From sequence record NC_005859.1: a stretch of 64,000 nucleotides of DNA; one strand, given 5' to 3'. The position numbers were made by a program, and so were the translations under genes. This DNA is from Escherichia phage T5. Below, piece after piece: positions 3,377-35,982 of the stretch. The notes beneath the pieces are model-generated. The model was not told where the DNA came from and did no database searches. It saw only the letters and a program-made list of their open reading frames with translations. How positions within the stretch are numbered: the first letter of the stretch is position 1; each line of letters starts with the position of its first letter.

Positions 3377-3472
3377 AATAATAAAACTCCATTAAAGGGA
3401 TTAAAAAACGTTTGTTATTGGCAATATTGCCAAATATAACGCCTTGAATAATAGGCGTTATAATTTGCAACA

Positions 3473-3670
3473 TTAATTTAAAGGCATAAGGCTAGAACTA
3501 ACACCACAAGCAACGGCGGCAATAAAACAAATCAGACCTAAACGCTTTGCTAACTTAGATTTACGTTTAAAATAATACGAATCTAAATCATTTTGAAAAT
3601 AAGCGAACAATAACGAGGCCGCCATAATAAACAAGCCTAGAATGAGGGATTCAGTAGGGTAAAAGATCAT
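3473..3670 (-). CDS. small membrane protein
   Basis: 65 aa, two hydrophobic segments. Confidence 0.4.
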   Translation of the reverse strand: MIFYPTESLILGLFIMAASLLFAYFQNDLDSYYFKRKSKLAKRLGLICFIAAVACGVSSSLMPLN

Positions 3671-3726: not shown

Positions 3727-4134
3727 TTATTCGCCTGCGGCTTGTTTTACTTCATCGGCAACGCCTAACAGTTGCGCCACGGCGTCCAGCGTTTCCAATT
3801 TTGCACTTTCCAGTGATGCCAGATCGTCAGCGTCTTTGATAATACCGGAATCGATGGCATGTTTTGCAATCACACGCACGTAGTGCGCTTTGCGGATAGA
3901 ACTGCCGCCGCCAACCTTGCGAGGTTTATCGCTTTTCTGATACGCTTTCGCGCTGGTCAATTTTGAGCGAACAGACACGGGAGAAGCCGCGCCAACTGCT
4001 TTTGCAATCTCTTTTAAACCGTCGCTATTTGCGAAATCTAAACCGTTTTCATTAATTAACTGCTGGTACATGGAAACAGCTTTCTGAGTGTTTTCTTCAT
4101 TCCAAGCGAATTTTGCGGTTTTAGCGTTAGTCAT
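3727..4134 (-). CDS. basic DNA-binding-like protein (possible A2)
   Basis: 135 aa (~14 kDa), basic patch KPRKVGGGSSIRKAHYVR; located directly upstream of A1 in the leftward operon; A2 assignment is inference. Confidence 0.45.
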   Translation of the reverse strand: MTNAKTAKFAWNEENTQKAVSMYQQLINENGLDFANSDGLKEIAKAVGAASPVSVRSKLTSAKAYQKSDKPRKVGGGSSIRKAHYVRVIAKHAIDSGIIKDADDLASLESAKLETLDAVAQLLGVADEVKQAAGE

Positions 4135-4974: not shown

Positions 4975-5410
4975 AATTTTTAAAGAGCGTGGCGGTAAAC
5001 TTCCCGCCGTGTAGTTCGTCATTGCCGCCCTACGAGATAAATAATAGGGGATACCCAAAAATGGCGCAACCTTATTTTTGTAAAGAAACGTAAAGAAGGC
5101 AACACGTCCGGCGCTCACCTAAGTTTAAAGGAAACGGGCGCGCGAATACCATAAAACCTAGCAGGTTGGCAAGTAATTTTTTCCTTTATATTTGCCTTGC
5201 CCTAGTTGACAAATCTTAGAAAGCTCGTGGTGACGATAAACGGGTTATCCCCTTATGATGGGATGCCTGAAAAATTTACCGCGTCAGAAAGCGTTTTAGG
5301 CGGCTTATTTTCGATTTAACAAATATTTAACAAAAGCAAAATTGAAAAATAGTTGGAAAAGATATTGACTTTTAAAAATCAAGACTAAACGAGTTATTTT
5401 ATAAAATTAA

Positions 5411-5929
5411 TTAATTGACAATTCCAAATTCAGCTTTTTTAGTTTCTACCCATAATAATAACTCTTGTAAATCATAACCTGATTTACTAACACTTTTGTT
5501 ACTAGTAGGATCTTTAACTATAGCGCGCAAATAGTTTCTTCCGTTATTATCAACTCTAGAACCATTATAATAGATATGCTTAGGCAACTTATTAGCACGC
5601 TTATAATCTTTCTTGTTATTCATATTCTGCTTATGGTCTACTAAGCGAAGATTATTAATGTTATTATTAGCACGGTTACGATCATTATGATCGATTGTTA
5701 GATTGCTATCAATCTCACCATTAAATAATACCCATATTATTCTATGCACTGCGTATTGTTCGCCTGCTAACTTTACTCGATAGTAACCTGTGTTACTATA
5801 ATGCCCTGCAATATCACCCACCTTACTATTACCTTTCTGTACTTTCCATCTTAGAAATGATGGGGATGTTTCATCATAATAAAAGTTATCATTAGCAAGC
5901 GAATAATCTATATCTTTAAATAGACCCAT
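5411..5929 (-). CDS. HNH homing endonuclease
   Basis: 172 aa; HNH core IDHNDRNRANNNINNLRLVDHKQN. Confidence 0.8.
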   Translation of the reverse strand: MGLFKDIDYSLANDNFYYDETSPSFLRWKVQKGNSKVGDIAGHYSNTGYYRVKLAGEQYAVHRIIWVLFNGEIDSNLTIDHNDRNRANNNINNLRLVDHKQNMNNKKDYKRANKLPKHIYYNGSRVDNNGRNYLRAIVKDPTSNKSVSKSGYDLQELLLWVETKKAEFGIVN

Positions 5930-6186
5930 TGTTATAGTTTCCTTATGTTATTAATTTAATCTCTATTATATTATATCAAAACCATTAGCAAACTACCTAA
6001 TGAGTTTTTCAGGTTTAATTAGCAGACTCATAATCACTTTAAAATCCTATTAGCCAACTAACTATATTTTGTTATATAATAACTGCATAAATTAGTTAGT
6101 GAGAAACACTATCATTTAAGTTATCCACAGCCTTATACATTTTGTAAATTAACTTGACACAATAGGAAGGCTTTATAGCACTTTTA

Positions 6187-6238
6187 CACAGACTTATCCA
6201 CAGGTTATTCCACTGTATAAATATACAGGGTAAATGGA
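6187..6238. repeat. left arm of ~40-bp inverted repeat with DnaA-box-like site
   Basis: contains TTATCCACA (6194-6202) and palindrome CTGTATAAATATACAG; reverse complement matches 9420-9460. Confidence 0.65.
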
Positions 6239-6433
6239 AAACATATTATAATGATGCCCAAAATAAGCGGCCTAAAACGCTTTCTAACGAGCAAAACGCT
6301 ATAGGGTAATATTAAAGTAAAGCCTCAACGCGTCGCCCTGGTGGCTTCGCCGTGTTTTGCTCTTTACTATACCGCTGCGCGGTTAGCATAAAACTAGGCG
6401 CTAGGCAAGGAAAATAAAAAGGTAAAATAATAT

Positions 6434-6462
6434 TTGCCTATGCTAGAAAATTACCTTTATCA
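6434..6462 (+). promoter_or_regulatory. sigma70-like promoter for 6495..7505
   Basis: -35 TTGCCT, 17-bp spacer, -10 TTATCA/TATCAT. Confidence 0.45.
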
Positions 6463-6494
6463 TTCACTCACCGATTAACGAGGGAGGCCAACAA

Positions 6495-7505
6495 ATGCGG
6501 CTATATAAACCAGATAACGCAACCGTCTTAAAGGGCGCCTTGCGCAACCTGCTGGATGGTAGCAGGACAACCAGCATTAAACATTTTATTAACAAGGCTG
6601 AAACTATTCACCAAAACTTTTTTAATGATTATGATGCCTATGATATGGATAGTTTTCTACCCCTATATAAGCAGGGGGCAACGATTATCTTATATAATCG
6701 TGATTGCCATATCTTTACGGGCAGGGGAGCGGGGCCGGATACTGATTTTATTGTTGCGCAGGGTAATAATATCGTTGCGTATCATAGCAATTCAGGCCGT
6801 CAATCATTTAATATAAATAATTTTGAGCTTGTTGGGCTTGAATTAATAAACGGACTTTCTAGCCTTGAGGGATTTTTAGATGTTATCTGGAAGTATTTAT
6901 CTGCTGGATGGCATAGACCTGATAGTGATGGATCTCAATATACGGCTGTAATGGCTTTTGATGGCGACGGTAATTTTTTATTACCATCGGAATTATATCC
7001 GTATGTATATAATGAGCTAGTACAAGAAGCGGGTTTTATTTTCTGGAAAGATGAGAATCAGATCATTGACAACACGGAAAAACATGCTGTAAATTCTAAC
7101 ACTCAAAGCGTTAACACTCAAATCACTGAAAACAAAGGAAAAAATGCCATGACCAAGATCGCTAATATCGTTGCCGCTAATAAATCCGCCGTTGTAAATG
7201 CTGCAAAACTGGAAGCGGGCAAAATTGCATTAACTCAAATCACGAAAGTAGCGGCTAAAAAAGCACCATTTATGATTAAAGGTTATATTGATACGCCTAT
7301 TGGTCGGGTAGTTATTGCTAACCTGCTGAGCGTAGCGGTTGACCAGTACGCCCCTAGCAACCAAAAGGCGAAAGCGGTAGCGGGTGCAGCTATGGAAGCG
7401 GCTATGCTAGAAATGGTGCAAAGTTTTAACATCGCTGAAATGATTGATGAAATGGTGAAAGGTATTGATATTTCTACTTTTACCGTTAACACCGAAAGCG
7501 AGTAA
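6495..7505 (+). CDS. hypothetical protein (IR-flanked cassette)
   Basis: 336-aa ORF; SD GGGAGG 7 nt upstream; candidate promoter and downstream terminator. Confidence 0.65.
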   Translation: MRLYKPDNATVLKGALRNLLDGSRTTSIKHFINKAETIHQNFFNDYDAYDMDSFLPLYKQGATIILYNRDCHIFTGRGAGPDTDFIVAQGNNIVAYHSNSGRQSFNINNFELVGLELINGLSSLEGFLDVIWKYLSAGWHRPDSDGSQYTAVMAFDGDGNFLLPSELYPYVYNELVQEAGFIFWKDENQIIDNTEKHAVNSNTQSVNTQITENKGKNAMTKIANIVAANKSAVVNAAKLEAGKIALTQITKVAAKKAPFMIKGYIDTPIGRVVIANLLSVAVDQYAPSNQKAKAVAGAAMEAAMLEMVQSFNIAEMIDEMVKGIDISTFTVNTESE

Positions 7506-7532
7506 TAATTAACCTAATGTAAAGTTTTGTAA

Positions 7533-7559
7533 AGGTCGCCATAATCGGCGGCCTTTTTT
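7533..7559 (+). terminator. intrinsic terminator
   Basis: stem AGGTCGCC/GGCGGCCT (one mismatch) followed by TTTTTT. Confidence 0.55.
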
Positions 7560-7623
7560 GTTATAATGCCTTTACACCGTTTGAGGACGGTTGAAAATTT
7601 TCCCAAAATTTTGGAGGCTTAAA

Positions 7624-7854
7624 ATGGTTGCTTATTCTTCTTCTGACGCTCTTTTCACTGGAAAAGGCTGGGTATCAAATCGCTGGATCATTCAAGAAAT
7701 GGTGCAGGAGTTCGGCATTGCTAAAACTTACACTACCATTCAGGCGCTTTATGATAATGATCAAATCGATCAGCAAACGGCGGGCTTTTTGCTGGATACC
7801 CTGAAAGCGGAACACTGTACTAAAAAACAAGCCGCCAAAATTGTTTTAATGTAA
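7624..7854 (+). CDS. hypothetical protein
   Basis: ATG with TGGAGG SD; 77 aa. Confidence 0.45.
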   Translation: MVAYSSSDALFTGKGWVSNRWIIQEMVQEFGIAKTYTTIQALYDNDQIDQQTAGFLLDTLKAEHCTKKQAAKIVLM

Positions 7855-7903
7855 TTAATAACGGGGCGTTACTTTCGCCCCACTAACTAGGGGAGTATTA
7901 CAA

Positions 7904-8083
7904 ATGGTTATTTTTCGAGCTATTCTGGCAGGTATCTTGGGCGCTATTCTGACCCTTTTTGCTACCGCTTACGGTATTCAAGATTCTTATTGTGGTTTAG
8001 TAAATACTAAACCTATGGTTATTATTGGCGCGGGTATCGCTGTATTTTCTTATCTGCTGGGCTGCATGAATAAAGGAGAATAA
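7904..8083 (+). CDS. small membrane protein
   Basis: 59 aa, two predicted TM helices; GGGGAG SD upstream; below the 60-aa ORF-track cutoff. Confidence 0.4.
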   Translation: MVIFRAILAGILGAILTLFATAYGIQDSYCGLVNTKPMVIIGAGIAVFSYLLGCMNKGE

Positions 8084-8085
8084 AA

Positions 8086-8298
8086 ATGATCCGCAACGTT
8101 TCTCTTGCTCGTTCAAAGGGTTTTAAGCTGGTGGATGTTAACACATTCGAGCGGGAAGATTGTAAAATCGAATATGTAGCACGTAATAAAAACGCCTTTC
8201 GTGTTACAGAAAAGAAATTTGATAAGCGCGGCAACGTGATAGCTGAAACGGTTAAACATTTTGCCACCTTTTACGCGGCTTTTCGTGGAGTGTTATAA
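8086..8298 (+). CDS. hypothetical protein
   Basis: 70-aa ORF with AAGGAG SD. Confidence 0.45.
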   Translation: MIRNVSLARSKGFKLVDVNTFEREDCKIEYVARNKNAFRVTEKKFDKRGNVIAETVKHFATFYAAFRGVL

Positions 8299-8299
8299 A

Positions 8300-8644
8300 A
8301 TGGTAATTTATGAAGGCAATCGCTTTGTTGCTATTTGCCGACCGGGATTATTAGCAAACTACTTAAATCAGGTGTCACCTGAATATAAAGGCGTCATTAA
8401 TATTTATGAGGGCAAGGCGCATTATAAGATTAATGCGGTCGTTGCCCGTGAATTAGCATTTCAATTTTTGACTTTCGCATCTTGTGATATTCAGGTCATG
8501 GGTGAAGCGTTAATTGCAGAAAATGAAGATGATTTTATTAATATCTTCCGCAAGGTATACACCGAGCGCCTGATAATGAAAGGCGCATATATTCAGTCAA
8601 CTGCGGAAAGTATTGAAACAGCTTTCAGAAAGGTGGCGCAATGA
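8300..8644 (+). CDS. hypothetical protein
   Basis: 114 aa from internal ATG (MVIYEGN) preceded by GTGGAG. Confidence 0.5.
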   Translation: MVIYEGNRFVAICRPGLLANYLNQVSPEYKGVINIYEGKAHYKINAVVARELAFQFLTFASCDIQVMGEALIAENEDDFINIFRKVYTERLIMKGAYIQSTAESIETAFRKVAQ

Positions 8645-8659
8645 AGCTATATATTTTCG

Positions 8660-8938
8660 TTGGTAATGTTGAGGCTGCGAATGATTCCGCTGGTGGCGAT
8701 AACGTTCGCCACTATTGGCAAAAATATATTTACTAGGGTTATTATGATTACACTGATTTGCGTTAAAGCCGAAGGCGACACGATAGCGCGAGAAGGGCAA
8801 AAATATAAAGCCCAAAAAGATCAATTACTCAAAACAATTGAGCGTTACAAAATACCCGATCTCAAGTATTCCGTAGTAGGACGCGATGGGATTCTAAGGG
8901 CGACACTTGAGAACGCTATCTTTGAGATAGTCAACTAA
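8660..8938 (+). CDS. hypothetical protein
   Basis: 92-aa ORF, start uncertain. Confidence 0.35.
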   Translation: MVMLRLRMIPLVAITFATIGKNIFTRVIMITLICVKAEGDTIAREGQKYKAQKDQLLKTIERYKIPDLKYSVVGRDGILRATLENAIFEIVN

Positions 8939-8953
8939 TAACGGGGCGTTATT

Positions 8954-9157
8954 ATGAGCAATAAAATTATTGTGACCAAAACTACCACAATGGTAGACGT
9001 TTTTTATGTGCCCGATACGCCGGAGAATCGGGGAGCGGTCGAGCGGGGCGAGTATGATAGCGTTATTTATGATGCCGATGGTTATTATCAGCATTTGGTC
9101 GATTCCTACGGGGAAGAGGAGAAGATCACGCATCGATTACCCGAGGGGGATTTATGA
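8954..9157 (+). CDS. hypothetical acidic protein
   Basis: 67-aa ORF. Confidence 0.4.
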   Translation: MSNKIIVTKTTTMVDVFYVPDTPENRGAVERGEYDSVIYDADGYYQHLVDSYGEEEKITHRLPEGDL

Positions 9158-9405
9158 AACGATGGTTTAATCACTGGTATAAACGGTTTTTAGTACGGCA
9201 TCGCAAGTCTAGACAGCAAGATGATTGGCGGGAAATGGCAAAGCGTAACAATTGCCCACTTCTCTGATAACCGACGGGGATCAGCTCCCCGTTTTTCACG
9301 CCTCCAGTTAAATCCCCCTTTGTTTTAGTATCCCCATCAAAATTAAACGCGTTAGAATGCGATCTAGGACGTTTTAGGCATATATTAGAATTATTCACTG
9401 CGTAG

Positions 9406-9460
9406 GAATACTGTATAAATATACAGTAGGATAACCTGGGGATAAGTCTGTTGATAACGC
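9406..9460. repeat. right arm of ~40-bp inverted repeat
   Basis: CTGTATAAATATACAG then GGATAACCTGGGGATAAGTCTG, inverted relative to 6187-6238. Confidence 0.65.
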
Positions 9461-9509
9461 TTCAAAATGGCTAGGATTTTGTCAAGGCGAATCGTGCTGT
9501 TGATAAGTC

Positions 9510-9518
9510 TGTGGATAA
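9510..9518. promoter_or_regulatory. DnaA-box-like site
   Basis: TGTGGATAA, reverse complement of consensus TTATCCACA; further copies at 6121-6129 and 6194-6202. Confidence 0.5.
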
Positions 9519-9545
9519 CTTAAATAACAGTGTTTCTCACTTCCG

Positions 9546-9720
9546 TTTTTAAATACGAATCATTATCATTCGTATTCCGCTTTTTAAATGAGAATCATTC
9601 CGCTTTTTAAATGAGAATCATTTCACTTCCTGAATAGTTCTCATTCCCTTTCTTAAATGAGAATCATTATCATTTGCATTTCACTTTTTAAATGAGATTG
9701 ATTCTCATTATCATTCGCAT
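9546..9720. repeat. direct repeats with palindromic core AATGAGAATCATT
   Basis: about 5 tandem imperfect copies of CGCTTTTTAAATGAGAATCATT-like units. Confidence 0.7.
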
Positions 9721-9728
9721 TCAGGCGA

Positions 9729-9755
9729 GCAGGGCAATTGCCCTGCGCTTTTGTG
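9729..9755 (+). terminator. hairpin with T-tract
   Basis: palindrome CAGGGCAATTGCCCTG followed by CGCTTTTG. Confidence 0.45.
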
Positions 9756-10490
9756 CAAATCCGACATTTGCCCCCATGGATTACGCGTGGGCGTGTATGT
9801 GCAAATCCGACAATTTTTGGTAGTGTGCGAATCCGACCCGAAAAATTTTTATAGTGTGCAAATCCGACAATGAATTTTCCCAAAAACTCCAGCAATCACG
9901 AACTGCGTTCGAATCCTGTGGAATTAGCTAGAGTATGTGCAAATCCGACATGTGTTGAGATGTGCGAATCCGACAAGATTTTTGTGACTTCGATGGGAGG
10001 GTGTGTGATTGTATGGGTTTGAGGGGAAGATGAGAGAGCGAGAGAAATTTGGGAGGCTAGAAGGATATGGGCGCAGGATTGGTGCGGAGCACCTGATTTG
10101 CGGGGATTTTGGGGAAGAGTTGAGATAATTTGGGAAGATTTGAGATAGGTGCAGAAAAAGTAAAATTTTATTAGCTAAAGGGGGCAAAATAGCTTGACAA
10201 GTGAAAATTTCTGTGGCTCTAAAAACTCAGGCAATCATGGGCCTTCGGCCCGAAATAATGCTGCTATTTTCAGGAGAGTAAGAGTTCCTAAAAACTTAGG
10301 CGTTTGTGCAAATCCGACCATAAATTTCTAGAAACACAATGTGCAAATCCGACAGTAATTTCTGGAAATGTGTTTTCAAAAAATGTCTTCTAGAAATAAC
10401 CGCCCTCCCTATAACCGCCCTGTATTAAACCGCCTATTGCTGGAGTTTCTAGGAACATGAAAACTGCCCTAGAGTATGTGCAAATCCGAT
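9753..10490. repeat. dispersed 14-bp repeat family GTGCRAATCCGAC(A)
   Basis: 9 copies at ~9753, 9799, 9825, 9856, 9937, 9963, 10306, 10341, 10478; one more inside a CDS at 12164. Confidence 0.8.
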
Positions 10491-10560
10491 GAATATTTTT
10501 GTGTGATCCCTAGAATTTATACTTATCAATTTCCTAGAAACTCAGGAGTCTAGAAGAAAG
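10325..10560. repeat. cluster of TTCTAGAA-type palindromes
   Basis: at least 6 TTCTAGAAA/TTCTGGAAA/TTCTAGGAA/TCTAGAAG sites within ~240 bp. Confidence 0.6.
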
Positions 10561-10935
10561 TGTTGTGCCATCCTAGCAGATGAGCGGCAACAGGTGTATC
10601 ATCTTGAATGTAAATTATATGGTCAAAAGTTTTACTTTTATTTTAAATATAAGATCCCCCAGGGTTCTCATATAGAGCTTTGCCCCCGCCAGAAGGTCTC
10701 GTGATGTTTCTAGTAATTTATATTAAATTACTTATTAACTTGTCCTATCGCTCCGTATCCTCCGCTACAAGTTAGTAATTTTAAATTACTGAACCACCAC
10801 ACCTTCTGTGTGGCAACTCTAAATGGTTAATTCTATTAACTCATAGAGTTATGATAACATACATTTAGCTATCTGTCAACGAAAGTTTGTATTTGAGTCT
10901 CGGTACAGGTATTGTGCACCGAGATATGCAGAGTA

Positions 10936-14687: not shown

Positions 14688-14884
14688 TTACGAACCCCGT
14701 TAATTGCCATAATGATGCCTTCGTACATAAAAGGAAGTAACCCAGAAGTATAGAATATATTTTCCGTTATTCCTAGATGCCGAAAAAGTATATTAAACAA
14801 TGCTGTTAGAAATACAATCTGAGGCAGTAATACAAAATACTCAGTTACAATCTTTGGTGCCTGATAAACAAGACGTTTTACCAT
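14684..14884 (-). CDS. small membrane protein
   Basis: 66 aa hydrophobic. Confidence 0.4.
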   Translation of the reverse strand: MVKRLVYQAPKIVTEYFVLLPQIVFLTALFNILFRHLGITENIFYTSGLLPFMYEGIIMAINGVRK

Positions 14885-14983
14885 TGTTTTTAAGTCTCCT
14901 TATTACTTTGGCCTGCTCCACAATAATGAAAACTGCGAGTACTAATAGTGCTATTAGTCCCGCAGTAATTGGTACTAGATCAA

Positions 14984-15361
14984 TCATGGGAGACGCCATA
15001 CGTAATTAGCTGTCTGTAGGACTTCGGAAACATCATCATGTTGCATCACTACAGACGTTGGAGAGTAACTATTCGCCAGTTCTGTACGAACCATCTCACG
15101 TTCTTCTCCAGTTTCAATATTTTTAACAACCACCTTCATTTTGAGAGGTGTCAGTTCAGAGAGCGGTTTCCAAGAGTCCTCAATTGCAATTCCTACCTTT
15201 TTCTCGATTACCATGAGAACTTCTAGTGTGTCATCTGGAATACTAATATTATTATTTACAAACTGTAACAGCTCATGCAAAGTATTTAATTCGTTAAAAT
15301 TAAGTTTCATCTTTAAGAATATCCTCAACCATATCACAGGACTGTTGTAATTCGTCAGCAA
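14984..15361 (-). CDS. hypothetical protein
   Basis: 125-aa ORF. Confidence 0.5.
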   Translation of the reverse strand: MLTNYNSPVIWLRIFLKMKLNFNELNTLHELLQFVNNNISIPDDTLEVLMVIEKKVGIAIEDSWKPLSELTPLKMKVVVKNIETGEEREMVRTELANSYSPTSVVMQHDDVSEVLQTANYVWRLP

Positions 15362-35095: not shown

Positions 35096-35170
35096 TGGTG
35101 CACCCTGTTCGAATTGAACGAACCTCTCAAGCTCTTCAGGCAAGCGCTAATCCATCTCAGCTAAAGGTGC
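35096..35170 (-). tRNA. tRNA-Phe (anticodon GAA)
   Basis: perfect T-stem and D-stem; anticodon loop CTGAAGA; anticodon stem has two U:U mismatches; CCA encoded. Confidence 0.5.
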
Positions 35171-35256
35171 AAATTTTGGCAGAGGTAAAGGTATTCGAAA
35201 CCTTTTCATGGGTTTTGGAGGCCCATTTGCAACCTATGCGTACCCCAATTGTTAAT

Positions 35257-35333
35257 TGGCGTCCTGTGTGGGGATCGAACCCGCAAACCCTACCTTGAAA
35301 GGGTAGTGACTTTACCAGTTTGTCTAACAGGAC
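35257..35333 (-). tRNA. tRNA-Glu (anticodon UUC)
   Basis: anticodon stem-loop CTACC/CTTTCAA/GGTAG perfect; perfect acceptor stem; CCA encoded. Confidence 0.75.
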
Positions 35334-35339
35334 TTAAAT

Positions 35340-35427
35340 TGGTAGGGGAGGATGGAGTCGAACCACCCGAGTCGCAATGACAACTAATTTACAGTCAGCT
35401 CTGCTACCACTTACAGAATACTCCCCC
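35340..35427 (-). tRNA. tRNA-Tyr (anticodon GUA), class II
   Basis: 88 nt; anticodon arm GCTGA/CTGTAAA/TTAGT; long variable arm; CCA encoded. Confidence 0.55.
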
Positions 35428-35551
35428 ATATTTGAATGAAAAGTAAGTCGGTTAAACTCAAGGTGGAATATTTCAGGATTTCCTGACTTTACCCCTCAAA
35501 GTAACTCGCTTAGTTACTTCTCATTCAGATATGTTTCCAAATTAGATAACT

Positions 35552-35580
35552 ATTATACCAAGTTTTAAGGCACTGAGCAA
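35552..35580 (-). promoter_or_regulatory. sigma70 promoter
   Basis: minus-strand TTGCTC-N17-TATAAT upstream of tRNA-Tyr/Glu/Phe group. Confidence 0.55.
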
Positions 35581-35616
35581 GTCAAATTTTGAAGAACTTG
35601 CTCAGTGCTGTATTAG

Positions 35617-35892
35617 TTAGTCGAACTTAGGAGTGACAGATAAGGAGAACGGAAGTTCAAAAACTTCTTCACCCTCATTACTAACAGTAACTACACGACC
35701 TTTAAGTTCAGACATTGAAATATCAATATCAGCTTTTGCATCTGGAGCCATGCCAGCTTCAACACATTTAGCTTTAACTTCCGGCAAGAGTTCTACATCG
35801 TAGAAATAAAGCCATTCAATCTCACCTTCCCAGCCTTCCCAGGATTTACAGATTGCACTTTCAATACCAGTTGCTACAACACTATTTTGCAT
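35617..35892 (-). CDS. hypothetical protein
   Basis: 91-aa ORF downstream of canonical promoter. Confidence 0.45.
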   Translation of the reverse strand: MQNSVVATGIESAICKSWEGWEGEIEWLYFYDVELLPEVKAKCVEAGMAPDAKADIDISMSELKGRVVTVSNEGEEVFELPFSLSVTPKFD

Positions 35893-35982
35893 TCGTTAAC
35901 TCCTTCATCAATTTATACAACTATTATATCAGAAATTTAAAGCAAAAGGCAAGTACATTTTTAAAAATTCTATTCGGAGGAG

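Follow-up and report, generated by a model that had tools for sequence, protein, structure and literature searches.

In the genome of Escherichia phage T5, a block of plus-strand pre-early genes is bracketed by two long inverted repeats, here called the arms. The best overall explanation for these arms, with a probability of about 0.6, is that they are composite protein-binding modules arranged as inverted repeats and tied to the stop of DNA injection, and that they form neither a genetic switch nor the ends of a mobile element. The stretch analysed, hereafter the window, comprises 64,000 nucleotides of record NC_005859.1, in which a sequence-only reading had singled out positions 6187 to 9460 as an invertible or mobile cassette, or as a pair of host-factor (DnaA/IHF) sites controlling DNA injection or replication. 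That interpretation is partly supported. In each arm a predicted LexA operator stands next to predicted DnaA boxes, and it is the LexA-type palindrome that is the best conserved part.

Each arm is about 131 bp long (6098-6228 and 9411-9541), and the two are inverted relative to each other. A repeat search resolved them into an inner pair, I2 (6188-6228 and 9411-9451; 41 nt, 88% complementary), and an outer pair, I1 (6098-6136 and 9503-9541; 39 nt, 92%), while a global alignment found the two blocks homologous from end to end, with a more diverged spacer of 51 bp in both. The left arm, on the side of gene A2 (Repeat Region 2), thus consists of IRC (6098-6136), a spacer (6137-6187) and IRD (6188-6228), and the right arm, on the side of the injection stop signal or iss region (Repeat Region 3), consists of IRD' (9411-9451), a spacer and IRC' (9503-9541). 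This is the composition of a T5 repeat region, namely two inverted-repeat pairs of about 40 bp, a spacer of about 52 bp (51 here) and paired DnaA boxes 3 bp apart. The sequence CTGTATAAATATACAG is present at 6213 and 9411, and the pattern CTGTATNNNNATACAG occurs only at these two positions in the 64 kb, against 0.00 expected. The inverted arms noticed by the sequence-only reading are therefore real, but the size of about 40 bp that it gave them describes the inner half alone, as the outer pair had been missed. Outward from the cassette, the modules follow one another as a GCGTTAGAA…CGTTTTAGG motif, the 20-bp LexA-type box, GGATAACC, a DnaA-box pair, the spacer of about 51 bp and a further DnaA box or pair. 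Beyond the arms the outer flanks are unrelated (CATAAATTAGTT versus TCCGTTTTTAAA).

By their sequence, the arms are almost certainly the inverted repeats already described in the T5 terminal repeat (AY587007; Davison, 2015, 2020). In AY587007 numbering these are inverted repeats C (6022-6060), D (6112-6152), D' (9332-9372) and C' (9424-9462), together with palindrome D (9330-9349) (Wang et al., 2005); the offset to the window is +76 for features on the left side and +79 for those on the right. The T5 IRC/IRD and IRD'/IRC' repeats with palindrome D are the same object, being identical to the arms in position, sequence, DnaA boxes and 131-bp extent and enclosing the same variable 6.2-9.2 kb region. 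The blocks have been named IRCspacerIRD and IRD'spacerIRC' in a preprint which credits their DnaA boxes to Heusterspreute (1987), finds them kept in 25 T5-like phages, describes the enclosed 6.2-9.2 kb coding region as hypervariable and reports IRC and IRD to be missing from Type 4 phages (Davison, 2020; 10.1101/866236). What is apparently new against this literature is the reading of palindrome D as a LexA operator, the conservation as far as Vibrio phages and the inversion between genera. A literature search found no link of LexA to T5-like phages, though Heusterspreute (1987), Wang et al. (2005) and Davison (2015) may hold one; LexA and SOS are nowhere mentioned by Davison (2020; 10.1101/866236).

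The right LexA-type box, TACTGTATAAATATACAGTA (9409-9428), which is palindrome D, agrees in 19 of 20 bases with the LexA consensus TACTGTATATATATACAGTA (PMC3108266), and only 0.01 matches with a single mismatch are expected in the window. The left box, CACTGTATAAATATACAGGG (6211-6230), has the core CTGT-N8-ACAG. When scored with a position weight matrix (PWM) made from 25 E. coli SOS boxes, the right box reached 28.6 bits, above all 25 training sites, and the left box 22.4 bits against a training median of 20.1; nothing else in the 64 kb attains that median. The asymmetric centre of the palindrome, AA, has the same plus-strand orientation in both T5 arms. Among close relatives the centre swaps freely between AA and TT and every variant retains CTG-N10-CAG, a pattern that would be expected of a symmetric site for a LexA dimer. 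Palindrome D would quite probably be bound by LexA in vitro.

The DnaA boxes form two mirror-image sets. On the plus strand of the left arm there is a consensus box TTATCCACA in IRC (6121-6129) and a pair with a 3-bp gap (6182-6202), found by a TTWTNCACA scan and made of TTTTACACA (6182-6190) and TTATCCACA (6194-6202). On the minus strand of the right arm there are a DnaA-like pair at 9437-9457, TTATCCCCA (9437-9445) and TTATCAACA (9449-9457), which are Davison's DnaA* boxes, and a pair at 9498-9518, TTATCAACA (9498-9506) and the consensus TTATCCACA (9510-9518). All three exact copies of TTATCCACA in the window lie within the arms (0.63 expected in the whole window), and so do six of its 28 boxes with at most one mismatch, although the arms amount to 262 bp. 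At the level of sequence the arms are hence a cluster of DnaA boxes enriched above chance, as the sequence-only reading had proposed, and it seems somewhat likely that host DnaA binds them. The IHF half of that proposal found no counterpart, since the IHF core consensus WATCARNNNNTTR is absent from both arms, and the DnaA half is essentially the hypothesis of Davison (2020; 10.1101/866236), in which membrane-bound DnaA grips the DNA at the boxes and halts injection. The same preprint considers a replication role for the boxes unlikely and places the T5 origins near the centre of the genome. Dense head-to-tail arrays of TGTGGATAA, the same unit as in the T5 box pairs and likewise with 3-bp gaps, were also seen in unrelated metagenomic viral contigs (L017, 10620-10760; L031, 2740-2830; L034, 12790-12850), where they are probably replication origins. 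Non-T5 viral contigs carrying the anchor 21-mer were considered as relatives of the arms and rejected as generic DnaA-box arrays.

Conservation separates these modules from one another only at depth. In close relatives the whole arm is 90-97% conserved and the cassette is full of indels, and the conservation of single columns is thus non-discriminating. A deep alignment was therefore made of 13 arms from T5, AAS21, IME260, My1, Proteus phage 1 and two Vibrio phages, in which the identity of protein A1 falls to about 35%. The sole invariant run in it is the CTGTA…CAG of the palindrome, with T and AT flanking it nearly invariant; the cores of the DnaA boxes rank second, behind the palindrome core, and the module order is common to all 13 arms. 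Sites at or above the PWM threshold number one or two each in IME260, AAS21, My1, Proteus phage 1 and the Vibrio phages 70E35-3 and Chester, against about zero in shuffled sequences, and in the distant phages such sites flank the cassette and nearly always adjoin DnaA boxes. Nine related viral contigs keep the pair of arms, as do AAS21, IME260 and My1, whereas its A2-side member has degenerated in Proteus phage 1 and Chester. In every Demerecviridae pre-early region examined a LexA-type box lies beside DnaA boxes at least on the iss side, where both kinds of site occur in all cases, whereas the A2-side arm can drop one kind. For example, the A2 side has DnaA boxes only in Chester and a LexA-type box only in Proteus phage 1.

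Several further observations concern these relatives. In Vibrio phage Chester (L043) a weaker second LexA-like site, TACTGCAAACCTTTACAGTA (118-137), is found beside the strong site at 286-305 (CTG core at 288), and the A2 side (3401-3567) has four DnaA boxes and no LexA-type box. The variant TTTACAAAATGTATAAGG of the T5 left-arm spacer (6137-6187) occurs in the iss-side arm of AAS21, IME260 and My1 (L039, L038 and L044), and the 60-nt inner flanks are likewise exchanged between the arms when T5 is compared with these three phages; such swaps suggest that the arms have exchanged sequence repeatedly. Some records labelled as Listeria or Campylobacter phages match the T5 region at the nucleotide level, and these are likely mislabelled or contaminated entries.

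The importance of the arms to the phage can be judged from a published deletion. According to a 2026 preprint (10.64898/2026.04.02.716235), genes 011, 013 and 015 are toxic, 011 is toxic when expressed alone and is dispensable, A1 and A2 are the sole essential ones, and the loss of hegG to 017 leaves a ΔLΔR phage viable, though its plaques are smaller. When the published primers and the screening oligo are mapped onto the window, the ΔLΔR junction joins 5393 to 9161. The deletion (about 5394-9160) has thus removed the whole left arm along with the cassette and retained the right arm, and as this phage is viable without the left arm, the pair of arms is not essential. The cassette is best described as a set of non-essential, partly toxic pre-early genes for host takeover.

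The mechanism favoured here is that host DnaA, and by our proposal also host LexA, would bind the sites in the arms on the first-step-transfer (FST) DNA. The iss-side arm would make up the final ~130 bp taken in ahead of the pause. It probably belongs to a nucleoprotein complex by which the DNA is marked, or held in place, where injection stops. Its A2-side counterpart would be a redundant and dispensable duplicate, often degenerate, and rare homologous recombination between the inverted arms would have flipped the accessory cassette in some lineages. The position of the right arm within iss supports a role that it may have in the pause at about 8% of the genome. A contribution of a DnaA/LexA complex to the stop or the restart of injection is a tentative suggestion. 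It is rather doubtful that palindrome D is a high-affinity LexA operator whose complex of LexA and DnaA constitutes the injection stop signal itself, or the A1/A2 restart element. As the cassette can be deleted or inverted, models that need transcription of the cassette towards iss, or pairing of one arm with the other, are disfavoured, and neither its orientation nor its presence would matter to two-step transfer.

A number of points weigh against this explanation. The LexA and DnaA sites are predictions from sequence, and lookalikes of the LexA box can fail to bind LexA in electrophoretic mobility shift assays (PMC5963079). The BF23 (2023) and PNAS (2026) papers treat Davison's DnaA idea as a hypothesis awaiting experiments. 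The overlap of the box with a promoter amounts to a weak 9/12 match to sigma-70, with TATACA as the -35 element, mirrored in both arms, and with no more convincing overlap than this the box would not be a classical SOS operator. T5-like phages have also been grown on the recA1 strain DH5α (host field of ESCO30), so that RecA-dependent cleavage of LexA cannot be required for the second transfer step. Finally, a protein bound to DNA that is already internal has no obvious way to block the entry of further DNA. SOS-triggered cleavage of LexA as a required restart signal was considered as a candidate and is ruled out by the propagation on recA1 DH5α.

Inverted repeats around a gene block invite the explanation that the block is a programmed invertible segment of the Gin/Hin/Cin kind, or a mobile cassette, with the arms as its recombination ends. 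The block is indeed not oriented alike in all genera. In Klebsiella phage IME260 the homologs of p010…p014 are co-oriented with A1 and p010 adjoins the iss-side arm; the p016…p010 block of Pectobacterium phage My1 is flipped likewise, and Pantoea phage AAS21 keeps the T5 orientation, with the outer flanks collinear in all four phages despite the inversion. The sub-variants of the arms are shared as a mosaic across the two arms of different phages, and a homing-endonuclease gene, hegG (5411-5929), adjoins the left arm of T5. An active mechanism is nevertheless very improbable. Pfam and PHROG scans of the seven cassette open reading frames (ORFs) found no recombinase, invertase, integrase or transposase family, and the cassette is flanked by hegG, of the HNH type, on the left and the non-coding iss on the right, with no adjacent recombinase gene. 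The arms are 131 bp long and dense in host-factor motifs, compared with crossover sites of 26-34 bp. A synthetic query for the flipped T5 junction was contiguous in none of 507 phage records, of which 39 had the native junction, and among 425 records matching the IME260 query, 67 had the IME260-type junction and none the flipped one in the Klebsiella clade. All nine related viral contigs with both arms show one layout, i.e., the A1/A2 operon, an arm, the opposite-strand cassette, an arm and iss, and vary only by indels in the cassette. As for mobility, there is no target-site duplication at the edges of the arms and no match to the element in 5,426 complete E. coli genomes or 72,556 plasmids, and both the cassette and the left arm can be deleted. 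The comparison across T5-like phages that the sequence-only reading had called for thus gave a divided answer, in which the pair is conserved and the orientation is the same in all nine close relatives, yet inverted in IME260 and My1 relative to T5 and AAS21, and its suggestion of an actively inverting or mobile cassette is not supported. The between-genus inversion is most simply read as the outcome of rare events, either homologous recombination between the long inverted repeats or their gene conversion, rather than as a switch; the arms appear to have mediated, or at least tolerated, inversion over evolutionary time.

The palindrome could also be read by a phage protein, A2 or A1/A2 together, for example as a restart or cleavage site in Davison's A1-restriction model. 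This is rather unlikely, even though A2 is a double-stranded-DNA-binding dimer needed for the second transfer step, PalD has been named as a possible A1/A2 target (Davison, 2020; 10.1101/866236), and a symmetric site with a freely flipping centre suits a dimer such as A2. An AlphaFold model of A2 (3727-4134), made with no alignment and with a mean confidence score (pLDDT) of 75.7, is all-helical with two three-helix units resembling helix-turn-helix folds, so that A2 is modelled as a tandem protein of that type. However, the CTGTAT…ATACAG core stays constant while A2 falls to about 40% and A1 to about 35% identity, which fits an invariant host factor better, and the palindrome beats genuine E. 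coli SOS boxes in its match to the LexA consensus. The modelled A2 lacks the strands of a winged helix, and nothing ties it to the motif. A search for A2 as a LexA-like protein gave no Pfam or PDB sequence match and no significant Foldseek match, the best but non-significant structural neighbours being TnpE and the N-terminal domain of CENP-B. The A2 and LexA readings are compatible, and A2 could compete with LexA for the site. It is quite unlikely that the arms serve instead as transcriptional controls or insulators, where LexA and DnaA would repress or roadblock transcription, time the toxic operon and shield iss from RNA polymerase. The arms do sit at the two ends of the operon, one where the A2 and 011 operons diverge and the other just past the cassette terminator; genes 011, 013 and 015 are toxic, weak inward promoter-like matches use the TATACA of the palindrome in both arms, and a harmless loss of LexA control would be consistent with dispensability. 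Against this, about 190 bp separate the annotated 011 promoter from the LexA-type box, the gap between the box and the first gene of the cassette varies from about 120 to 900 bp among phages, the arms keep their place when the cassette is inverted, and the promoter-like matches are at background level (22 found versus 15.1 ± 4.1 in shuffles). Least credible of all is that an old duplication left the arms behind as a relic without function, as the dispensable and often degenerate left arm might suggest; between Escherichia and Vibrio phages the genes that they enclose lose all detectable homology, yet the architecture and motifs of the arms persist, and the high conservation of the arms in close relatives stands against an indel-riddled cassette.

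Apart from the T5 repeats themselves, several known systems share features with the composite modules preferred here. Like oriC, datA and DARS of E. coli, the T5 arms have close-set consensus TTATCCACA 9-mers arranged head to tail with 3-bp gaps. Unlike these loci, they have no adjacent AT-rich unwinding element and no replication role, and their boxes form two mirror-image sets 3.2 kb apart. With the LexA operators of gamma-proteobacterial SOS genes, colicin operons and some temperate or filamentous phages, the predicted T5 boxes share the 16-bp CTGT-(AT-rich)8-ACAG with TA…TA flanks. In contrast to the usual operators, they occur in a strictly virulent phage, overlap no more than weak promoter-like matches, are duplicated in mirror positions and lie nearly always beside DnaA boxes. 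Similarly, the invertible segments of Mu (G) and P1 (C) and of Salmonella Hin have inverted repeats around a gene block whose orientation differs between related genomes, whereas T5 has no serine invertase gene, far longer arms and no flipped junction among the records, and its inversion is old and fixed.

The region under study has a well-annotated setting. Positions 5900-9800 of the window are 100% identical to Escherichia phage T5 st0 (AY692264.1), at identical coordinates, and lie within the left terminal repeat of T5, i.e., in the FST DNA. To the left, on the minus strand, are the pre-early genes dmp, A1, A2 and hdi along with the HNH gene hegG, and on the right follows iss, a long stretch of non-coding DNA with the annotated limits 9140-10144. 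The right arm falls within this annotated feature, about 200-340 bp left of the 7.9% nick and shear point.

The first gene of the cassette, T5p010 or gene 011 (6495-7505, plus strand), encodes a 336-aa, 37-kDa pre-early protein of family DUF7566. Its promoter (6422-6490, plus strand) is annotated in AY692264, and the promoter upstream of gene 011 has been experimentally characterised (10.64898/2026.04.02.716235); a terminator-like hairpin on the plus strand (7531-7556), an annotated terminator in AY587007, follows the gene. The sequence-only reading had noted this protein with its own promoter and terminator. Six small pre-early ORFs, T5p011-T5p016, follow on the plus strand (7591-9157). One of them, T5p013 (8086-8298), falls in PHROG 4227, which is the family of the Ung-dependent abasic-site nickase; in T5.0xx numbering that nickase is gene 015. 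The five ORFs other than T5p010 and T5p013 are without assigned function in the Pfam and PHROG scans. The cassette is closed by palindrome C (9273-9292, plus strand), a putative rho-independent terminator (AY587007 9194-9213 and 9196-9212, offset +79). The statement that no other plus-strand genes occur in the first 38 kb was nearly right, but T5p026 (14800-15009) and T5p083 (35159-35956) are also on the plus strand, and the cassette is the only multi-gene plus-strand block there. An Rfam scan of 5900-10900 found no RNA element. Its sole match, below threshold, was to the Salmonella small RNA STnc320 (7522-7574, minus strand; 27 bits versus a gathering score of 50, E = 0.058), and this is probably nothing but the bidirectional-looking terminator hairpin after T5p010.

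Other sequence features lie within and around the arms. The left spacer has a conserved TTGACA (6154-6159), for which no usable -10 element was found at a distance of 16-18 bp. On the cassette side of the left arm is an inner-flank motif of the IRB' type (...CCTAAAACGCTTTCTAACGAGC; 6260-6292, minus strand), which corresponds to inverted repeat B' of AY587007 (6184-6209, offset +76), has CGTTTTAGG at 6271 on the minus strand and is kept as far as the Vibrio phages. Its mirror at the right arm, GCGTTAGAATGCGATCTAGGACGTTTTAGG (9349-9379, plus strand), is conserved in relatives. A third conserved motif, GCGTTAGAAnGCG…CGTTTTAGG, overlaps the annotated IRB/IRB' (window 5285-5310, 6260-6292 and 9349-9379); it stands on the cassette side of each LexA-type box, and inverted or palindromic copies of it are found in IME260, AAS21 and the Vibrio phages. 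The iss repeats AATGAGAATCATTATCATT (9655-9715), immediately beyond the right arm, resemble the 7-1-7 core of the Fur box, TGATAATNATTATCA, with one or two mismatches. IME260, AAS21 and My1 also have cores of this kind on their iss side, more than shuffled sequences would give; taken together, the further positions with Fur-like cores are 233-247 in the window, 5205 and 14821 in IME260 (L038), 5061, 5107 and 5142 in AAS21 (L039), and 12224 and 12317 in My1 (L044). A perfect Fur-like core lies inside dmp in T5 and IME260, where coding constraint may explain it. The T5 receptor FhuA is Fur-regulated. Fur is nowhere mentioned by Davison (2020; 10.1101/866236). Six irregularly spaced copies of TGTGCRAATCCGAC, the known DRD repeats, lie at 9752-9974, just past the 7.9% nick.

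The pause of T5 DNA delivery at 8% of the genome has been a question since the 1960s and was without an experimental explanation as of 2023-2026. The pair of repeats is the leading candidate for the cis element of this pause, and was already known as such. The present analysis sharpens that hypothesis, as the most conserved bases of the arms read as a consensus LexA operator and are not those of the DnaA boxes emphasised so far. If the LexA/DnaA reading is true, T5-like phages, from those of Escherichia to those of Vibrio, would load two global DNA-binding proteins of the host onto the final ~130 bp of the first transfer step.

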